From the NCBI RefSeq assembly GCF_044324785.1, contig NZ_CP172127.1: a stretch of 64,000 nt of DNA, one strand, 5' to 3'. The stretch is from Escherichia coli (lineage in GTDB: Bacteria; Pseudomonadota; Gammaproteobacteria; Enterobacterales; Enterobacteriaceae). The notes beneath the pieces were generated by a model. That model had not been told where the DNA came from. It did not search any database and worked only from the letters and a program-made list of their open reading frames with translations. Shown here piece by piece: positions 23,680 through 58,422 of this stretch. Both the position numbers and the translations under genes were made by a program. How positions within the stretch are numbered: position 1 is the stretch's first letter; each line of letters starts with the position of its first letter.

Positions 23680-24418
23680 ATGGACGACACACAATTGCAG
23701 GCTCTGGCTAACGAACTGGCCAAAAATCTCAAAACCCCTGAAGATCTCAGTCAGTTCGATCGCCTGCTCAAGAAAATAAGTGTTGAGGCAGCTCTCAACG
23801 CTGAACTGACTCACCATCTGGGACATGAAAAAAATCAGACCAAATCGGGAACCAACTTCCGTAATGGCTATTCCACGAAAACCGTCACCACTACCGACGG
23901 GCCGATGGAATTACGTACTCCACCTGATCGTGATGGTTCCTTCGAACCACAACTGGTGAAGAAAAATCAGACCCGCATTACCGGCATGGACAACCAGATC
24001 CTGGCGCTGTATGCCAGAGGGATGACTACCCGCGAAATTACCTCAGCCTTCAAAGAAATGTACGACGCCGATGTCTCGCCCACGCTGATATCCAAAGTGA
24101 CCGATGCGGTTAAAGAACAGGTCTCTGAATGGCAAAACCGACCGTTGGATGCACTGTATCCCATTGTTTATCTTGACTGTATTGTGGTTAAGGTTCGTCA
24201 CAGCGGGAGTGTCATTAACAAAGCGGTGTTCCTCGCGCTGGGCATCAATACCGACGGTCAGAAAGAGCTGCTGGATATGTGGCTGGCCGAAAATGAAGGT
24301 GCAAAGTTCTGGCTGAATGTACTGACGGAACTGAAAAATCGCGGCCTGAACGATATCCTTATCGCCTTCGTGGACGGCCTGAAAGGCTTCCCGGAAGCGA
24401 TTAATGCCGTCTATCCCA
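23680..24418 (+). pseudogene. IS256-family transposase, N-terminal about 246 aa, truncated by IS200 sequence
   Basis: MDDTQLQALANELAKNLKTPEDL...NAELTHHLGHEK...LDCIVVKVR...IAFVDGLKGFPEAINAVYP then loss of homology. Confidence 0.8.
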
Positions 24419-24650
24419 TAAAGCCGGATACGCTCATTTTGGGCGGGATCTCCACAAGCATATGGATATGATCTGCACAGCACTCAGCTTCAAGAATCCG
24501 TACACTTTTCCACTCACACAGCTTTCTCAAAATACTGCCTGTTGCTTTACGCTTCTCTCTGTAGAACACTTTTCTTCGGTATTTTGGCGCAAAAACTATG
24601 TGATATTTACAGTTCCATCGGGTATGCGCTAAGCTCTTTTCGTTCCCCAT
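24418..24650 (-). pseudogene. tnpA: IS200 transposase TnpA, N-terminal part only
   Basis: MGNEKSLAHTRWNCKYHIVFAPKYRRKVFYREKRKATGSILRKLCEWKSVRILEAECCADHIHMLVEIPPKMSVSGFMG; gene cut off at 24418. Confidence 0.75.
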
Positions 24651-24654
24651 TGGG

Positions 24655-24723
24655 ACCCCCTTTTGATTTCTTGTTTGACACTTGCAGTTGCCAGACCGCA
24701 AGGTGTTTTAACAAATCAAAAGG
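24655..24723 (-). promoter_or_regulatory. IS200 5' leader stem-loop immediately upstream of the tnpA start codon
   Basis: 12-bp arms CCCCTTTTGATT (24655..24666) and AATCAAAAGGGG (24712..24723) with 45-nt loop; RBS and ATG lie directly after the stem on the minus strand. Confidence 0.4.
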
Positions 24724-24739
24724 GGTTTTAATAACTGGC

Positions 24740-25787
24740 TCAAAGCTGAAAGCTTTCCGGCCCCCAGCCTAGCTGGGGTTTTTCTGTGCACAAAAATCCG
24801 GAAACGAGTGAGCGTTTCAGGATTCTTAAACAGACCCTGGATCGGTCAACTGCTCCTAAACTGATCGGCATTACACCTGTCGGCTGCCGTTTTTTCAGCT
24901 CCGTGATCCATGGGCCGGGTTCTTTGGTAAGCAATGCTGCCGCCCTTGCCCCATGGATAAATAATGTCCGGTGGTAGGTATCCCCACGTTTGCTTATCCC
25001 CAGCATGCGAACCTTCCCAGCGGACCCCGTCTGCTTCGGCACCAGACAGACATAAGCGTCAAACTCACGTCCGGATTTAAATGCTGAGGCCTCGCCCATG
25101 GTGGCGACCACCGCCGTAGCGATTAACGGCCCCACACCGGGGATTTCCATTAGGCGCTTACAGTTTTCGCTCTGCCGTGCCACGCTGTTAATCTGTTTAT
25201 CAAGGCCATCTATCTGCATGCCCAGCTCACTCAGTCTGTTGTACTGGTATTCAAGCACAGTGATGAGATACGGCGGCAGGTTCGTCTTCATTCGCTCTAG
25301 GGCTGTCGGTAGCTTTCTGTCCATCGCTGTCCAATCTTTGTGGAGGATTTCACCAAACTCGAGGAGCGTGCCAAGGGTATTAATATGCGAGGTTCTGAAC
25401 TTCACCAGTTGTCTGCGCGAACGGTGCAGGACCAGAACTGACTGCTTCTCTTCCGTTTTAACAGCGATATCTTTACTGGGCTGCTGTACCGCCATCCAGA
25501 TAGCACGCGCATCCATCACATCATTTTTGTTGCCCATGACGAATGCTTTAACGAAGCGAGCTTGCAACAGCCGAACTTTGTGTCCCAGTTTTTTCCAGTT
25601 CCCTCGCCCAATGTTGGGAGCCTCCACAAGCCTCCATACCTATCAGACAGGGTTCCCGGTTGCTGAAGAACGTCAGAAAATCCTTGCTACGTAGCTGCTT
25701 GTCCACCACTTCGCCCGTGTACTCATTGATGAAGTGAACCTGAATCAGATACTTTGCGATATCAACGCCAACCGGTGTATATTTCAT
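24740..25787 (-). pseudogene. IS110-family transposase, frameshifted near 25600
   Basis: N-terminus MKYTPVGVDIAKYLIQVHFINEYTGEVVDK...LIGMEACGGSQHWAREL (ORF 25548..25886), continuing in another frame with MEIPGVGPLIATAVVA...MLGISKRGD (ORF 24740..25627). Confidence 0.75.
24761..24783 (+). terminator. Hairpin followed by a T-run (rho-independent terminator-like), at the IS200 left end and the 3' end of the IS110-family gene
   Basis: CCCCCAGC-CTA-GCTGGGG followed by TTTTT on the plus strand. Confidence 0.35.
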
Positions 25788-26028
25788 TTGTGGAGTCGCC
25801 AGTCTGAGGGCGCTTTTGCATCCCGTATTGGGCACTATGATGCCGGAAATCTGAGAGGCTCCACAGCAGACAATTTTACCCTTCATCCATCACAGTGCAC
25901 CTCTCTTAACAGGGCAGGATGTGTTCAGTACATTTCTCCTTTTATGGTTACAGTTTATCCATCATGGCGTAATTGAAGGCTGTCGTGAAGGAGAGGAAGA
26001 GCATCTCATCACTTACAAACAAATACAT

Positions 26029-29825: not shown

Positions 29826-29850
29826 TTGTCAACAACGGATGAAAAGTGGC
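29826..29850. repeat. Solo IS21-family (IS100-like) terminal IR remnant
   Basis: TGTCAACAACGGATGAAAAGTGG, nearly identical to the IS100-like IR at 12747..12772; no IS21-family genes adjacent. Confidence 0.4.
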
Positions 29851-29860
29851 ACTTCCTTGG

Positions 29861-29950
29861 ATTTACCTCTATATTTCCAGACATCTGTTATCACTTAACC
29901 TGTTACTGTCCTTCAACTGCAGGTGATTCAGGGGGCCAGTCTAACCGCTA
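29861..29950. mobile_element. Miniature IS2 remnant: both IS2 ends fused, about 90 bp, no coding sequence
   Basis: TGGATTTACCTCTATATTTCCAGACATCTGTTATCACTTAACC (IS2 right-end-like) joined to CAGGTGATTCAGGGGGCCAGTCTA (IS2 left-end-like); compare the intact IS2 ends at 38350 and 39680. Confidence 0.5.
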
Positions 29951-30074
29951 AGAACATGTTCCCGAAAATTGAGATAAACACGTTATGACAGCAACGTAAA
30001 ATAAAACAGCGTTTTTTAGTCATAATGAACATGTAGAGTCCGTTTGTTCATACTCTGTGATTATCTCCATACGT

Positions 30075-30428
30075 TCATCTCTGGCGCTGCCAGATAGCGT
30101 TTTCGTTCTTACAGTCAATGCGCACCCGATACTGAATATCGGCTTTCTTCCCCCGGGCGGTGAGATGCACTGTGACTAAATTATCACCTTTACTTACCAG
30201 CTCACGAAGATTCACCCAGACAACAGGATGCTGCTGACTGAAGATCACCTAGTCATCTTTCCAGTGAAGCACCTGTTTCTGGAGATAGTCCCGTTTGACG
30301 CTGGCTGCAACAGCCGATGATTCCTGCCCTTCACATCGTGGAAAACTGACGGTTCTGTTTTTATCAGTAGCCAGTGATGATACACAAATACCGAAGGTGA
30401 GCAGAATTGAAGAGAGTGTTTTGTTTAT
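30075..30428 (-). pseudogene. Small exported-protein gene remnant (in-frame TAG, no start codon)
   Basis: Minus-strand frame reads LSSILLTFGICVSSLATDKNRTVSFPRCEGQ...HWKDD-stop-VIFSQQHPVVWVNLRELVSKGDNLVTVHLTARGKKADIQYRVRIDCKNENAIWQRQR; signal-peptide-like start; family not recognised. Confidence 0.25.
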
Positions 30429-36558: not shown

Positions 36559-36653
36559 GCTTCATTTCGCGCACAGCCATCCCCCTGAAATCTGGCTGAC
36601 TGTTATTTCGCAACAGTTATTGAGTAAATCTTTAACCTGTTAACAGAGGGTTT

Positions 36654-37178
36654 ATGAAACGTAAACTTATTGCCTTTGTGATTCTGGCTACATCATCCTG
36701 TGGATATGCAGCCACCAAAGATGTAACAATGAATCTTGTTGATAGTGACGGAAAAGAGCGAAATATTGGTAAAATAACCATCCAGAAGACACCCTACGGG
36801 CTGCTGTTCACCCCTGATCTTCACTCCTTACCCGCCGGCATTCATGGTTTTCATGTACATGAAAACGCAAGTTGTGCTCCTGCCCTGAAAGATGGAAAAA
36901 CTGTCGCTGCTTTATCTGCAGGTGGTCACTTTGACCCGGAAAAAACAGGGAAGCATCTCGGTCCATGGTCTCCTGATGGCCACCTGGGTGATCTCCCTGC
37001 GCTTTATGTCACTCATGACGGAAAAGCAACCTACCCGGTGCTTGCGCCAAGACTATCTGAATTAAAGGAGCTCGATGGCCGTTCGCTAATGCTCCACGCA
37101 GGAGGTGATAATCATGATGACCATCCTGAACCTCTAGGTGGCGGTGGTGCAAGAATTGCCTGTGGTATCATCCCATAA
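36654..37178 (+). CDS. sodC: Periplasmic Cu/Zn superoxide dismutase, prophage-type SodC (second copy)
   Basis: Identical 174-aa product to 22235..22759. Confidence 0.9.
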
Positions 37179-37306
37179 TCAATCAGGTAAGGGATATCCT
37201 CCCTTACCCTTAATCTTCCCTGGCTGCATGTGCATATCTTTCAGTTACTGTGAGATACCTGTATTACGGTGTCTTTTTAGCTCACAGAAATATCAGACAG
37301 CCCGTT

Positions 37307-37531
37307 TCAGTGTTTTATTACCTTAATCTTTTTACGGCATTCTTCAGCTCTTGCGCATGCTATTTTTTCACCTGTTTCATAACATTGCTGGCAGCCTAAT
37401 CCAAATTTCATCGCCATATCATAACCTTCCCGAAAACCTCGGAACCACGCGTTACGAAGGTATTCATCATATTCCCCGCAGTCAATAATAACCATTTTAT
37501 TTTCATGGGATTTTCCGGTATTCTCACTCAT
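37307..37531 (-). CDS. Hypothetical small Cys-containing protein (copy of 21882..22106)
   Basis: Same 74-aa product with 2 substitutions (H-to-Q, Y-to-C in the 119-aa track ORF). Confidence 0.35.
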   Translation of the reverse strand: MSENTGKSHENKMVIIDCGEYDEYLRNAWFRGFREGYDMAMKFGLGCQQCYETGEKIACARAEECRKKIKVIKH

Positions 37532-38360
37532 TTTCGATACCTCAATGCTTACAACAGAAAAGTATACTTTTACGAAGTTCGCCTTTGCAGGACTATATAA
37601 AGTTATCACTGGATGCAAGAGCCGGAAATCCTGTATATCAGGATCAACTTTGTAATTCAATAACATATTATCCAGTGAAAAAGTAAGTATATTTAAGCTG
37701 GGGAAGGAGAAGGGGGACTTGATTTGATATTTTCATCAATAATATTATTTTTCCTCCTCCATTATTCATTCAGACCTGGTTCCGGGCGTAATTCCGATTT
37801 CTCTGTTGAAGCGATGCATTTATATTTAAATATTCACCTGTCATTGAATTTTATTTGAAATAGGAGAAAATCTCCTCCTGTACTACAGATAACCCGGAAT
37901 GTTCCTCGAAAGAAAATTCTGGCGCAGAATTCACGCCCGGTTCTGTTCAACATCATGCAGGATAACGATACCGAAACGTTAAACTCTGGCAATTCTCGTG
38001 TTATACACAGGCAGGAGTGATTACTACGGTAAGAATTGCTGAAAAGGGGAGAACACTGAAGGCCTTATTCGCGAAGAATAAAGGAGACATTTCATGTAAA
38101 TTATTATCAGAGATAACCTTCTCCAGGCGCTTTTGTTCGCTTCCTGAATTGCTACCTGATACATATTTACGGGATGCCAGCCTGGTGACTATAACTCCGA
38201 AAAGACCGATTATTGTATTGCGTGCATCCGGCATGTTTACAATGTACGCTGGTATCTAACGGAGTCTGACACAGATGCACGCAGGTGTATATTTTAACGT
38301 AATTATCCGGAAAGAACAGTATATTTTAATGCGGGAGTTGCATGAGCGGTGGATTTGCCC

Positions 38361-39266
38361 CTATATTTCCAGACACCTGTTATCACTTAACCCATTACTG
38401 GCCTGCTGCCGCAGATATTCCCGTGGCGAGCGATAACCCAGTGCACTATGCGGATGCCATTCGTTATAATGCTCGAACGCCTCTGCAAGGTTCTTTGCTG
38501 CCGTTAACCCGTCTGGTTTAGGCATGATACTGATGTAGTCACGCTTTATCGTTTTCACGAAGCTCTCTGCTATGCCGTTACTCTCCGGACTCCGCACCGC
38601 CGTGTTCTTCGGTTCAAGCCCCAACATCCGGGCAAACTGCCGTGTTTCATTAGCCCGGTAGCATGAACCATTATCCGTCAGCCACTCTACTGGAGACGCC
38701 GGAAGCTCGTTGCCGAAGCGGCGTTCCACCGCTCCCAGCATTACGTCCTGTACTGTTTCACTGTCGAAGCCGCCCGTAGTGACTGCCCAGTGCAGTGCCT
38801 CACGGTCACAGCAGTCCAGCGCGAACGTGACTCGCAGTTTTTCTCCGTTATCACAGCGGAACTCGAACCCGTCAGAGCACCATCGTTGATTGCTTTCTTT
38901 CACGGCCACTTTGCCAGTATGTGCCCGTTTCGATGGCGGTACAGCGGTTTTTCGCTCAAGCAACAGCGCATTCTGGCGCATGATCCGGTAAACACGTTTG
39001 GCATTGATCGCAGGCATACCATCAAGTTCGGCCTGTCTGCGAAGCAGCGCCCATACCCGACGATAACCATACGTGGGCAGCTCTCCGATAACATGGTGTA
39101 TACGGAGAAGCACATCCGTATCATCTGAGTGACGGCTGCGGCGACCATCTTTCCAGTCATCGGTTCGTCTGAGAATTACGTGCAACTGCGCACGCGACAC
39201 CCGGAGACAACGGCTGACTAAGCTTACTCCCCATCCCCGGGCAATAAGGGCGCGTGCGCTATCCAC
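38361..39266 (-). CDS. insD: IS2 transposase InsD (orfB)
   Basis: 301-aa [33 protein letters not shown]...[22 protein letters not shown]. Confidence 0.9.
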
Positions 39267-39589
39267 TTTTTTGCACGCCCGTATTCAACGGCTTCTTTAA
39301 GGAGTTCATTTTCCATCGTTTTTTTGCCGAGCAGGCGCTGGAGTTCTTTAATCTGCTTCATGGCAGCAGCAAGTTCAGAGGCAGGAACGACCTGCTCTCC
39401 TGCGGCCACAGCAGTAAGACTTCCCTCCTGGTATTGCTTGCGCCAGAGAAATAACTGGCTGGCTGCCACACCGTGTTGCCGGGCAACAAGGGAGACCGTC
39501 ATTCCCGGTTCAAAACTCTGCTGAACAATAGCGATCTTTTCCTGTGTAGTACGCCGTCTGCGTTTCTCCGGTCCTAAGACATCAATCAT
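39224..39589 (-). CDS. insC: IS2 InsC (orfA)
   Basis: [52 protein letters not shown]...; the track ORF is extended upstream to 39634. Confidence 0.85.
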
Positions 39590-39681
39590 CTGCTCTCCAA
39601 TGACTAGTCTAAAAACTAGTATTAAGACTATCACTTATTTAAGTGATATTGGTTGTCTGGAGATTCAGGGGGCCAGTCTAA

Positions 39682-39948
<267 letters not shown>

Positions 39949-40069
39949 CAACGTATTCATGAGCTGGAAAAGCAGGTTCGTCGCCTGGAGGAACAAAAAA
40001 CGATATTAAAAAGCTACAGTGCTCTTGATATCCTCCCCACTGAACGGTTTACGATAGTTACCAGACTGA

Positions 40070-40499
<430 letters not shown>

Positions 40500-49541: not shown

Positions 49542-50328
49542 ATTAAGGAAAGCGACCGCCGCCGTGAATTTTTAATGTTCATTGCAGATTATCGTGGGCT
49601 GGAAATGATAACGGTTGGGGAGTTATTGTTTAGTTGCTAAAACAGAACGATAACCAACCCCAACCGTTCTCAATTTCGAATACTATCTTTTCCATTTATC
49701 TCTGGATAGGCTTTGACGTCGTCCCTACTGAGTAAAATCCCCCTCATCATCCACCTAAAACCGATTGAAAACGGTCATTACTCTTGTGGCAAACAGGCTA
49801 AAGCCGTTCACGATGCTTCACTTCGCACCTTATCGTAATGAACAATACTGGTATTTCCAGTTCAGTTACGCCTACCCGTCTACCGCATTCTTTGCCCTAA
49901 CTGCGGCATAGTTCGGGATTATATCAGCTGGCTAAAGCCTTATGCTCATCAGACCACATGACTCATTGAGCATGTTGAGGCGTTACTCAAAATCTTGCCG
50001 ATTAAACATATTTCGTAATTTCTTACCCTGCACTAACATATCATCAATACTATCGACAAACGTCAGTTGCAAATAGAGGTCACAGGGTCTGATTGATGTA
50101 CTGTCAAGGCCGGGTCATGAAAGAGTTTGCCCTGTTCAAAGCTCATCGTTACGCACCGTCGTAGCCGATGCGGATACTCATCAATCCTCTGGATAGGTGA
50201 GGTGCGTAGTAGAGAAGCTCGGTCGTTTTTCGTTAATCTGAATCAGTACTGTCAACATATTCAAGTCGTTAATATGGATATGAATACCTCCTTTGACCTA
50301 GAGGTACAGATGCACTACCCCCCAAGCT

Positions 50329-50352
50329 GTCAACGACGGATGAAAAGTGGCT
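50329..50352. repeat. Solo IS21-family (IS100-like) terminal IR remnant
   Basis: TGTCAACGACGGATGAAAAGTGGC, matches the IR at 12747..12772 and 29826..29850. Confidence 0.4.
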
Positions 50353-50684
50353 CTTCCGCAACCTGGATGGAGATTTTCATGCCAGTGGACTCATGACCCT
50401 CTGCCTGAGTAGTTCAAATCCGGCTCGACCATACATCTGGCCTTTCAGCATTTTTAGCCAATTTACATGACTTTCGACCACCCCCCATTATTCCAGCGAC
50501 TGCTGATTGCCTCACATATAGCCGCAGCATCAGCTACCATCCTTGCAGCCACGCGCCGAAGTTACCACTTTCTCGTTGCTCTTTTAACCACTCCCTCCAT
50601 GGGTCCAGAAGTCCTCGCTCTGGAGGCCGGGTTGACATTTCAGGGAATGTTCCTGAACACACCCAGAGACTGACTGTCACACGT

Positions 50685-50741
50685 GATAAGCCTGTAATAC
50701 GGGATAAGCCTGTAATACGGGATAAGCCTGTAATACGGGAT
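50685..50741. repeat. Perfect 19-bp tandem repeat x3 (GATAAGCCTGTAATACGGG)
   Basis: Three exact head-to-tail copies; read through by the tail of the 50640..51539 ORF (IPYYRL x3). Confidence 0.9.
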
Positions 50742-50779
50742 ATTTCCCCTGAACCCACATCCCTTGTTATGTAGTGCCA

Positions 50780-51539
50780 TAACCTCTGTCCAACGCTGAT
50801 GCCGTTTTTGGCGGGTTTGCTGTTTAAGGCGTTCCGGACGACGGAGCGATGCTACAGGCACAGACAGTACTGGCTTAGGTGATTTCTTTGGTGACAACCC
50901 ACTGGCAACAAGACGTATCAGAGGCATCTGTCTGTACATCATTCGTTCAGGCGCATCGCCAATATTTTTTAGCAGGTGCCATCGATCAGCTATCTGTCTG
51001 GCCTGAGGTGCACCTTCACGTGCTGCTGTCGCATAGACTCCGCCACGGTCACGTGAGACAACCTGTATTTCCGGATATTTTCTGAACCAGGTCGCCAGCG
51101 TACTCTGATCGCAACCGGGAAGCAGGACGAGGGGACGGTGAGTATCAAGATTGACAATTAACGTGCCGTAATGGTGGCCCCGATGCCACGCCCACTCATC
51201 AATACCGACATGAGGCGCGCCCGACTGTTTCGTCTCCGGGGTATTAATAACCCTGCGAAGAAGAGTATCAGCACTGCAACGGAGCCCCACTGCCGTTGCT
51301 GCCTGTTTCCCGGCCTCACCTCCGGCTATTAATCCCAGTTGATGTTGTAAATTTTGTAACACCTGTGAAGAATGCTGGGAGTGAACCGGCGAAGGGGGCA
51401 AGCGACCCGGCAAAAATTTTACGTGAACAAGCCGGGTTACGGCAGTACCAGTGGCGGACGGAAAATACAAGCCATAGCGTCTGCCCTGAGCAGGGTAGAT
51501 GCTGTATCCGGCGCCGACGATAACTATGAACAGAGTCAC
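50780..51539 (-). pseudogene. ISL3-like transposase fragment, N-terminally truncated
   Basis: GIDEWAWHRGHHYGTLIVNLDTHRPLVLLPG...VVSRDRGGVYATAAREGAPQARQIADRWHLLKNIGDA resembles the ISL3-family catalytic region; no N-terminal zinc-finger/HTH part. Confidence 0.45.
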
Positions 51540-51716
51540 TACGCTTAAAGCATTCAGGACTTGTGCTGTTTTGCGTTTTCCGTGGAGATGGAGGGTTATA
51601 CCGTCAGAGCTAATAATTTGTCGACTGCATCTCCATCCGCAAGGTAACTGTAGAAGTGTCTGGTGATGCTGCCAACTTACTGATTTAGTGTATGATGGTG
51701 TTTTTGAGGTGCTCCA

Positions 51717-51992
51717 GTGGCTTCTGTTTCTATCAGCTGTCCCTCCTGTTCAGCTACTGACGGGGTGGTGCGTAACGGCAAAAGCACCGCCGGACATCAG
51801 CGCTATCTCTGCTCTCACTGCCGTAAAACATGGCAACTGCAGTTCACTTACACCGCTTCTCAACCCGGTACGCACCAGAAAATCATTGATATGGCCATGA
51901 ATGGCGTTGGATGCCGGGCAACTGCCCGCATTATGGGCGTTGGCCTCAACACGATTTTACGTCACTTAAAAAACTCAGGCCGCAGTCGGTAA
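51717..51992 (+). CDS. insA: IS1 InsA
   Basis: [88 protein letters not shown]. Confidence 0.9.
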
Positions 51993-52414
51993 CCTCGCGC
52001 ATACAGCCGGGCAGTGACGTCATCGTCTGCGCGGAAATGGACGAACAGTGGGGCTATGTCGGGGCTAAATCGCGCCAGCGCTGGCTGTTTTACGCGTATG
52101 ACAGTCTCCGGAAGACGGTTGTTGCGCACGTATTCGGTGAACGCACTATGGCGACGCTGGGGCGTCTTATGAGCCTGCTGTCACCCTTTGACGTGGTGAT
52201 ATGGATGACGGATGGCTGGCCGCTGTATGAATCCCGCCTGAAGGGAAAGCTGCACGTAATCAGCAAGCGATATACGCAGCGAATTGAGCGGCATAACCTG
52301 AATCTGAGGCAGCACCTGGCACGGCTGGGACGGAAGTCGCTGTCGTTTTCAAAATCGGTGGAGCTGCATGACAAAGTCATCAGGCATTATCTGAACATAA
52401 AACACTATCAATAA
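51911..52414 (+). CDS. insB: IS1 InsB frame (expressed as an InsAB fusion by frameshifting)
   Basis: ...[51 protein letters not shown]... Confidence 0.9.
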
Positions 52415-52425
52415 GTTGGAGTCAT

Positions 52426-52578
52426 TACCGTGTTCCCGACAGACGACTCGGTGAAAAAAGTGGTGTGGCTGGCAATCCAGTCTGCGTCCCAGAAATGGAC
52501 GATGCCGTTGAAGGACTGGCGAATGGCAATGAGCCGCTTTATTATCGAGTTCGGTGACCGCCTGGACGGTCACTTCTG
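52426..52578 (+). pseudogene. IS256-family transposase C-terminal fragment (last about 50 aa), abutting the IS1 right end
   Basis: VFPTDDSVKKVVWLAIQSASQKWTMPLKDWRMAMSRFIIEFGDRLDGHF-stop. Confidence 0.75.
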
Positions 52579-57684: not shown

Positions 57685-58422
57685 TCACTGAGCTGTAATC
57701 AATGTACAGCGCTGTACCGGGCGATGGGTAATACCGGTCACAACCGGTAACCCCAGAGACAATGCAACTGTTTTTAACGCAATATACTGGCCGGATGTAT
57801 CACCCCGGGCAGCCTGAAAACACCTTTCCACCCGGCATTGTCCGTCAGCACTTATCACCCGCCATGTCTGTTGCAATAAATCCACCCGTTGCGAACATTC
57901 TTCATCAACCGTGGCACTGACCCGTGGATGGCAAATGCTCGTCTGGCTGAGCAGCAACAGGCATCGCATTGTTGCTCCTCCATGTTGTTCCCGCAACCAG
58001 CGTAATACCACCGGTGGTGCTGGACTGGCCGTGTGATTACGTTCAGTAATACGCTCGTGCACCTGTCGGTAAAAGGAAGTACAGAATGCATGAATCTGTT
58101 GTCCGTTGATGTTTCCTTCTGCCGAATGGAGTGTGAAGTGGACGGCCAGCAGACGCGGCCAGTGATCCACCGCCTGCTGAATAAAACGCCGGATTTCCAC
58201 CGGCTCTGAAAGTACGGTTTCGGTTATTTGCACGATTTGATCCCCTTGAATGTTGCTGAACCGGTGTCGGTACGCAGGAAAGCACGCCGAGACCGGTACG
58301 ATGCCTGTTACAGCGAAGAACGAGGAATGACAGACGGGGGCAGCAGGTCGCCAGCACCAGGGACAGGGCTGATTTCCACAATACCAACGCTGGTATTTTG
58401 CACATTGCCAGCGTACCGGCAT
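57685..58422 (-). CDS. Hypothetical island protein downstream of alpA (paralog fragment at 23000..23567)
   Basis: Track ORF 57685..58479 overlaps alpA, so the start is probably later; a second long ORF is open in another frame over the same DNA (57855..58091), so the frame is uncertain. Confidence 0.35.
   Translation of the reverse strand: MPVRWQCAKYQRWYCGNQPCPWCWRPAAPVCHSSFFAVTGIVPVSACFPAYRHRFSNIQGDQIVQITETVLSEPVEIRRFIQQAVDHWPRLLAVHFTLHSAEGNINGQQIHAFCTSFYRQVHERITERNHTASPAPPVVLRWLREQHGGATMRCLLLLSQTSICHPRVSATVDEECSQRVDLLQQTWRVISADGQCRVERCFQAARGDTSGQYIALKTVALSLGLPVVTGITHRPVQRCTLITAQ

Follow-up and report, generated by a model that had tools for sequence, protein, structure and literature searches.

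A decayed insertion-sequence block between sitD and a ROK regulator, a likely recombination joint of two Escherichia coli islands

Introduction

The 64,000-nt stretch of Escherichia coli DNA analysed here, called the window throughout, carries a short block of insertion-sequence (IS) debris on which the neighbouring genes converge: sitD lies on the plus strand, a YebF pseudogene and a ROK regulator on the minus strand. What is this block made of, can any part of it still move, and how did it come to lie between these genes? The preliminary description of the locus took it for an IS2 remnant with its two ends joined, which might still be mobilised, next to an isolated terminal repeat of an IS21-family element. 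Below we describe the two parts of the block, follow its copies through public genomes and weigh the ways in which its present neighbours could have come together.

Results

An internally deleted IS2 downstream of sitD

An internally deleted IS2-type unit occupies 86 nt of the window (29858-29943). Its outer termini are those of IS2 (IS3 family, 1331 bp), TGGATTT... at one side and ...CCAGTCTA at the other. The two parts of this stub and the copy used as its reference are:

29858 to 29922, plus strand: IRR-side part of an IS2-type element, 65 nt, 85% identical to intact IS2
29923 to 29943, plus strand: outer 21 nt of the IS2 IRL, with a 19-nt identity to the intact IRL tip
38350 to 39680, minus strand: intact IS2 of 1331 bp, flanked on both sides by the duplication AGCGG

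The reference copy matches the NCBIfam profiles for IS2 TnpB (706 bits) and IS2 TnpA (276 bits). When the IRR side of the stub was aligned to the end of this copy at 38350-38414, 55 of the 65 positions matched. The 41-nt IRR is complete in the stub and agrees with intact IS2 at 38 positions, two of the three mismatches falling inside the 11-bp cleavage domain. About 24-25 nt of interior sequence are retained beyond the IRR and have diverged from IS2. On the IRL side, matches are confined to tip positions 1-19 and 21-22, and the inner half of the 42-nt repeat is gone. Within the window, the 19-nt sequence GATTCAGGGGGCCAGTCTA has just two occurrences, 29925-29943 and the IS2 end 39662-39680, and a 32-nt pattern from the IRR-side core occurs only in the stub and in the intact IS2 end; shuffled sequences gave an expectation of 0 in both cases. 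The similarity between the stub and the IS2 ends is real and far above chance.

The stub differs from IS2 in several respects. It has neither orfA nor orfB, both of which are present in the copy at 38350-39680. Its flanks, TTCCT and ACCGC, do not form a 5-bp target duplication. Its IRL is cut to about 22 nt, and it does not possess the full pair of ends (41-bp IRR and 42-bp IRL) of a functional IS2. No full-length element closer to the stub came to light. Its best matches among IS2-type ends reach 81-96% identity over 45-65 nt, and none has the stub's interior variants. The interior of the stub differs by about 15% from each of the IS2 copies that we found, as would fit an old relic. The preliminary description, which placed a 90-bp remnant at 29861-29950 with essentially no internal sequence, was therefore right that the outer termini are precise and that the two outer tips are joined, but the limits of the unit have to be redrawn as given above, part of the interior survives on the IRR side, and only half of the IRL remains.

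The upstream repeat is an ISEc38-like end

Upstream of the stub lies a 24-nt motif (29827-29850) that recurs in the window at 50328-50351 and, with two mismatches, at 12747-12770. The elements to which these three occurrences belong are:

29827 to 29856, plus strand: first 30 nt of an ISEc38-like (ISL3-family) terminal inverted repeat, 28/30 against full-length ISEc38
50328 to 51661, minus strand: ISEc38-like remnant that begins with the full 43-nt inverted repeat and is cut by IS1 at 51662, about 92% identical to ISEc38 nt 1-234 and 582-1644
12747 to 14699, minus strand: intact IS100 (IS21 family), 1953 bp, inside an IS66-family transposase gene, with the duplication GCTCA; source of the terminal 22 nt

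The outer 22 nt of the motif are an IS100 terminus, with 21 of 22 positions matching at 29827 and all of them at 50328. Past nt 22, IS100 continues ATCCAC..., whereas the copies at 29827 and 50328 continue GC(A/T)CTTCC, in the manner of ISL3 elements. At 29827, nt 23-30 read GCACTTCC, which agrees with the ISEc38 end (GCTCTTCC) but not with IS100 (ATCCACTT). Continuation of the repeat into …GTGATCCAC…, together with istA and istB, was found only at 12747-14699. This IS100 has 28-nt terminal inverted repeats and a second internal repeat, encodes IstB and IstA as judged by family matches, and is 99.5% identical to the annotated IS100 of pSA186_2; neither the second repeat nor the two genes accompany the motif at 29827 or 50328.

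The 43-nt repeat typical of the ISEc38-like element, including its inner GGCTCTTCCGCAACC, is present in full at 50328-50370, where it runs on as GCAACCTGG..., while 30 nt alone survive at 29827, the repeat being cut at nt 30/31 where the IS2 stub starts. About 60% of E. coli genomes have, at one conserved site, an element in which an ISL3 transposase pseudogene lies between two copies of this 43-nt terminal repeat. Intact relatives of that element carry the name ISEc38 in RefSeq, and their assignment to the ISL3 family is supported by both NCBIfam and Pfam. The window copies are about 92-93% identical to plasmid-borne ISEc38. A putative ISL3 transposase gene adjoins the repeat at 50328. No such gene accompanies the copy at 29827, which breaks off at the IS2 stub. 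The ISEc38-like element at 50328 runs on for 1.33 kb past the repeat, with transposase remnants on the minus strand, up to an intact IS1 (51662-52429) that truncates it. The open reading frame at 50640-51539 matches the ISL3 family with an E value of 1.8e-47 and 162.2 bits, below the curated cutoff of 180 bits, and Pfam DDE_Tnp_ISL3 with an E value of 4e-17. The remnant has an additional internal deletion of about 347 nt at 50563/50564, corresponding to ISEc38 nt 235-581.

The second occurrence of the motif, which had been put at about 50329, is thus confirmed, and the IS100-like label proposed for the motif holds for its outer 22 nt, beyond which the sequence belongs to ISL3-family ISEc38; the copy at 50328, taken for a solo repeat, in fact heads a truncated element. 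The change of family is relevant to annotation, since elements of two different IS families end in the same 22 nt.

Composite features of ISEc38

Full-length ISEc38 copies (compared at L016 6865-8628 and at 101-1864 of L018, L019 and L021) themselves have unusual ends. From the outside in, they show exact 22-nt IS100 termini followed by a typical ISL3 repeat, and the two termini of ISEc38 correspond to the two different ends of IS100. Perfect duplications of 5 bp, the length seen with IS100, lie outside the 22-nt termini in four of nine full copies (GTTGT, CATGG, GTTTG and GGAGC); ISL3 elements usually make 8-bp duplications. The 539-aa transposase contains about 135 aa inserted relative to ISL3 profiles, and its residues 301-386 are 34% identical to the N-terminal helix-turn-helix (HTH) of IS100 IstA (E 4e-11) and match the IS21 transposase profile with an E value of 1.6e-16. 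It is possible, though less likely than not, that ISEc38 is a natural chimera of two IS families: either an ISL3 transposase would have gained an IS21-type DNA-binding domain and matching ends, or an ISL3 core would lie in a mini-IS100 that is moved by IstA and IstB in trans. We found no description of such chimerism in the searchable literature.

The terminal repeat of ISEc38 comes in variants. We considered that these might be the left and right ends (IRL and IRR) of the element and rejected this reading, since the plasmid copies show all combinations. In plasmid copies that have no duplications (L020, L022, L023 and L025), the end variants are both of one type or are swapped. The copies suggest frequent recombination or conversion between ISEc38 elements, and short exchanges seem common.

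The stub travels only with its flanks

A 142-nt region spanning the block was searched by megablast against 5,426 complete E. coli genomes. The whole 140-nt block was found in 61 of them, at two loci only, and the remaining matches are ends of ordinary IS2 copies. Wider searches gave the same picture: the exact 32-nt stub core was absent from 100,044 species genomes (one genome per species), none of 72,556 plasmids held at least 80% of the 86-nt stub, and a 35-nt pattern spanning the point of deletion had no match in viral contigs and matched five metagenome contigs among 241 million records, all five in the two contexts already known. All copies that we found agree in their left neighbour and in the 22 nt at their right:

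29944 to 29965, plus strand: 22-nt right flank ACCGCTAAGAACATGTTCCCGA, which according to the alignments moves with the stub at both E. coli loci

Since all copies share both flanks, the repeated unit is the 140-nt block 29827-29965 and not the IS2 stub alone.

IS-derived MITEs are short and non-autonomous, carry both terminal repeats and target duplications, and occur as many dispersed copies. The stub resembles them in being small and in having both element tips, and the preliminary description accordingly proposed a MITE-like derivative that the IS2 transposase, for instance that of the copy at 38350, could mobilise in trans; it also recommended a search for further copies with target duplications. 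The precision of both outer termini, the completeness of the IRR and the presence of an intact IS2 only 8.4 kb away speak for such a proposal. Much stands against it. Instead of several unrelated contexts, each with its own duplication, the search returned the two loci with identical flanks, and the stub in the window has no duplication. In IS2, residues 12-19 of the IRL are important for recognition and residues 20-42 are the anchoring sequence (PMC3299598). With 21-22 of 42 IRL nucleotides left, the stub has lost this anchoring region, and most of its IRR mismatches are in the cleavage domain. The stub is predicted to be unable to transpose because the inner half of its IRL is missing and it has no copy away from its flanks. 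As far as published end requirements can be applied to a sequence, they argue against mobilisation in trans; the MITE reading is not supported, appears largely refuted and is in our opinion very improbable.

Two block types meet within the window

The two loci at which the block occurs in E. coli are distinct. One copy follows sitD (S type) and the other lies beside YebF and the ROK regulator (C type), in the following gene orders:

S type: sitABCD, block, IS1 fragment, ISL3 pseudogene, iutA/iuc
C type, left of the block: S6-peptidase autotransporter, AbgT transporter, IS3-family fragment
C type, right of the block: YebF pseudogene, ROK regulator, GDPD gene, ABC transporter, sodC

Blocks after sitD are 97.9% identical to that of the window, and those beside YebF/ROK 90.8-93.7%. 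Of about 141 positions aligned between the two types, 17 differ (about 12%). Eight of these differences fall within the 31-nt repeat part, which is more diverged than the rest, and the repeat parts of the S and C blocks resemble the two different end variants of ISEc38. Two apparent exceptions were discarded. A supposed third type, seen as BLAST matches starting at query position 17, proved to be ROK-type blocks whose alignment had been trimmed, and a plasmid with an apparently intact IS2 after sitD reflected a joining artefact, that IS2 lying upstream of sitA.

The window is a mosaic of the two types. From far upstream as far as the G run, up to and including 29930, it has no difference from the S type; it then shows three differences in the last 35 nt, the match ending at 29965 where the IS1 fragment of the S type starts. 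Against the C type, it shows 14 differences in the first 99 nt (to 29924) and is identical from 29925 on; to the right of the switch it follows the C locus at 99.5-99.9% for tens of kilobases. The alignment of the block types places the change here:

29925 to 29935, no strand: switch from the sit-locus to the ROK-locus block type, the inferred crossover

In strain GF60 both parental loci are present, separated by 606 kb. At 99.5-99.9%, the window is collinear with locus 1 of this strain as far as the block and follows its locus 2 from there. Upstream of locus 1, GF60 has, according to its annotation, an IS66-family transposase gene interrupted by IS100, like the window at 12747.

Other repeats and IS fragments in the window

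Directly to the right of the block, at about 30075-30428 on the minus strand, is a YebF-family gene with an internal stop, which is a pseudogene in RefSeq relatives. Further out, two 2.5-kb inverted repeats (20301-22823 and 36590-40447), which are 99-100% identical and include a Cu/Zn superoxide dismutase gene (sodC), enclose the segment made of sit, block, ROK and ABC transporter genes; the right arm is broken by the intact IS2. GF60 has one sodC arm in each of the two separate islands. It also has an IS2 at the equivalent of window position 37795, where the window has none, in the opposite orientation to the window IS2 at 38350; the two elements are 96.5% identical, which indicates independent IS2 insertions in the same arm.

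Upstream of sitA, positions 17000-25900 form a dense IS graveyard with fragments of IS3-family, IS256 (IS1414), IS200 and IS110 elements and a group II intron reverse transcriptase open reading frame at 18139-19380. The graveyard is collinear with GF60 locus 1, save for an extra IS1 in GF60 that is absent from the window at 21513. Two direct repeats of 89 and 175 nt, 86-89% identical and 34.8 kb apart, were also seen at 23125-23389 and 57968-58244.

How the sitD-ROK arrangement may have formed

The arrangement of the window, with sitD joined to ROK through the block, was found in none of the 5,426 complete E. coli genomes, and in none of 20 sampled contigs that have the exact SitD or ROK protein, all of which show the two separate arrangements. 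The block is a likely recombination joint, and the simplest reading of the mosaic is a single crossover between an S-type and a C-type block at 29925-29935. In genomes that have both loci, these are separated by 0.6-2.7 Mb and stand in either relative orientation. A simple deletion between them would have to be too large to be plausible, which makes an inversion or an exchange with incoming DNA the likelier route, the recombination step itself being deduced from the products. The preliminary description took the solo ends as marks of past IS-mediated deletions on both sides of the sit and yah islands. Such a deletion is plausible for the missing target duplication of the stub, whereas the join of sit and ROK is better explained by a crossover in the block. 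Several points weigh against this crossover. The two block types agree over as many as 35 nt without a difference, yet the interval, of about 11 nt, lies outside this longest stretch. Recombination within 140 nt of about 88-90% homology would be expected to be rare, and the divergence of the repeat part (8 of 31 nt) would need an additional short-patch exchange with other ISEc38 ends.

Two other accounts of the join have to be set beside it. The arrangement of the window, sitD followed by the block and then the truncated YebF and ROK, could be the ancestral one, with the two separate loci derived from it, at sit through truncation by IS1 and at ROK through replacement; the hybrid pattern would then result from gene conversion in those lineages. 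The S-type block does keep 22 nt of ROK-side flank before its IS1 fragment, which implies that it once continued into ROK-side sequence, and a nearly identical 2.5-kb segment containing sodC is common to both islands. An ancestral arrangement would, on the other hand, require two replacements that arose independently and yet have their boundaries within about 11 nt of each other, the roughly 12% difference between the block types does not fit recent derivation from one copy, and the joined arrangement was seen in none of the complete genomes searched; we regard it as unlikely. The absence of the join from the public complete genomes, and a switch placed exactly inside a repeat that is present at two loci, are also what an assembly chimera would give, in which contigs of the two islands had been linked through the shared block. 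The exact sequence shared at the switch is 11 nt (23 nt if the length of the G run is ignored), too short for the usual k-mer overlaps, and both flanks are collinear for many kilobases, so that a misassembly seems quite improbable. Both accounts are less parsimonious than the crossover.

Our preferred history is thus that of a dead IS block, produced by an ISEc38-like end, an IS2 insertion and deletions, in which a later crossover probably joined two islands. While the anatomy, the copy distribution, the fragment families and the mosaic pattern were observed directly, we infer the order of events and the recombination mechanism, which may have been as follows. An ISEc38-like ISL3-family element would have inserted first, and an IS2-type element would then have inserted at nt 30/31 of its terminal repeat. 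On the IRL side, probably an adjacent deletion, or else recombination with another IS2, would have removed the duplication along with the remainder of the ISEc38-like element. An internal deletion would have reduced IS2 from 1331 bp to 86 nt, joining 65 nt of the IRR side to 21-22 nt of the IRL. A segment of at least 140 nt then came, on this account, to stand in two places, and its copies either diverged there or arrived already diverged (about 12% now). IS1 would have cut the S-type copy after 22 nt of the right flank. The last step would be the single crossover in the block (29925-29935), by which the left part of the first island was joined to the right part of the second.

Discussion

The block shows no sign of a function of its own beyond that of a recombination substrate. 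An Rfam search of the block returned noise only, without a match, and a scan of it for promoters and terminators gave nothing notable. Fragments of decayed IS elements are commonplace in the islands of E. coli. The feature is ordinary IS debris whose sole notable role is that of a short repeat at which two E. coli islands have apparently been joined.

As a marker, the locus nevertheless has some use. Both the 140-nt block and the 2.5-kb sodC segment are common to the sit-aerobactin island and to a second island, which contains a serine-protease autotransporter, the ROK regulator and a yah-like cluster. If these islands were indeed fused at the block, virulence or fitness islands can be rearranged through very short stretches of IS debris that they have in common.
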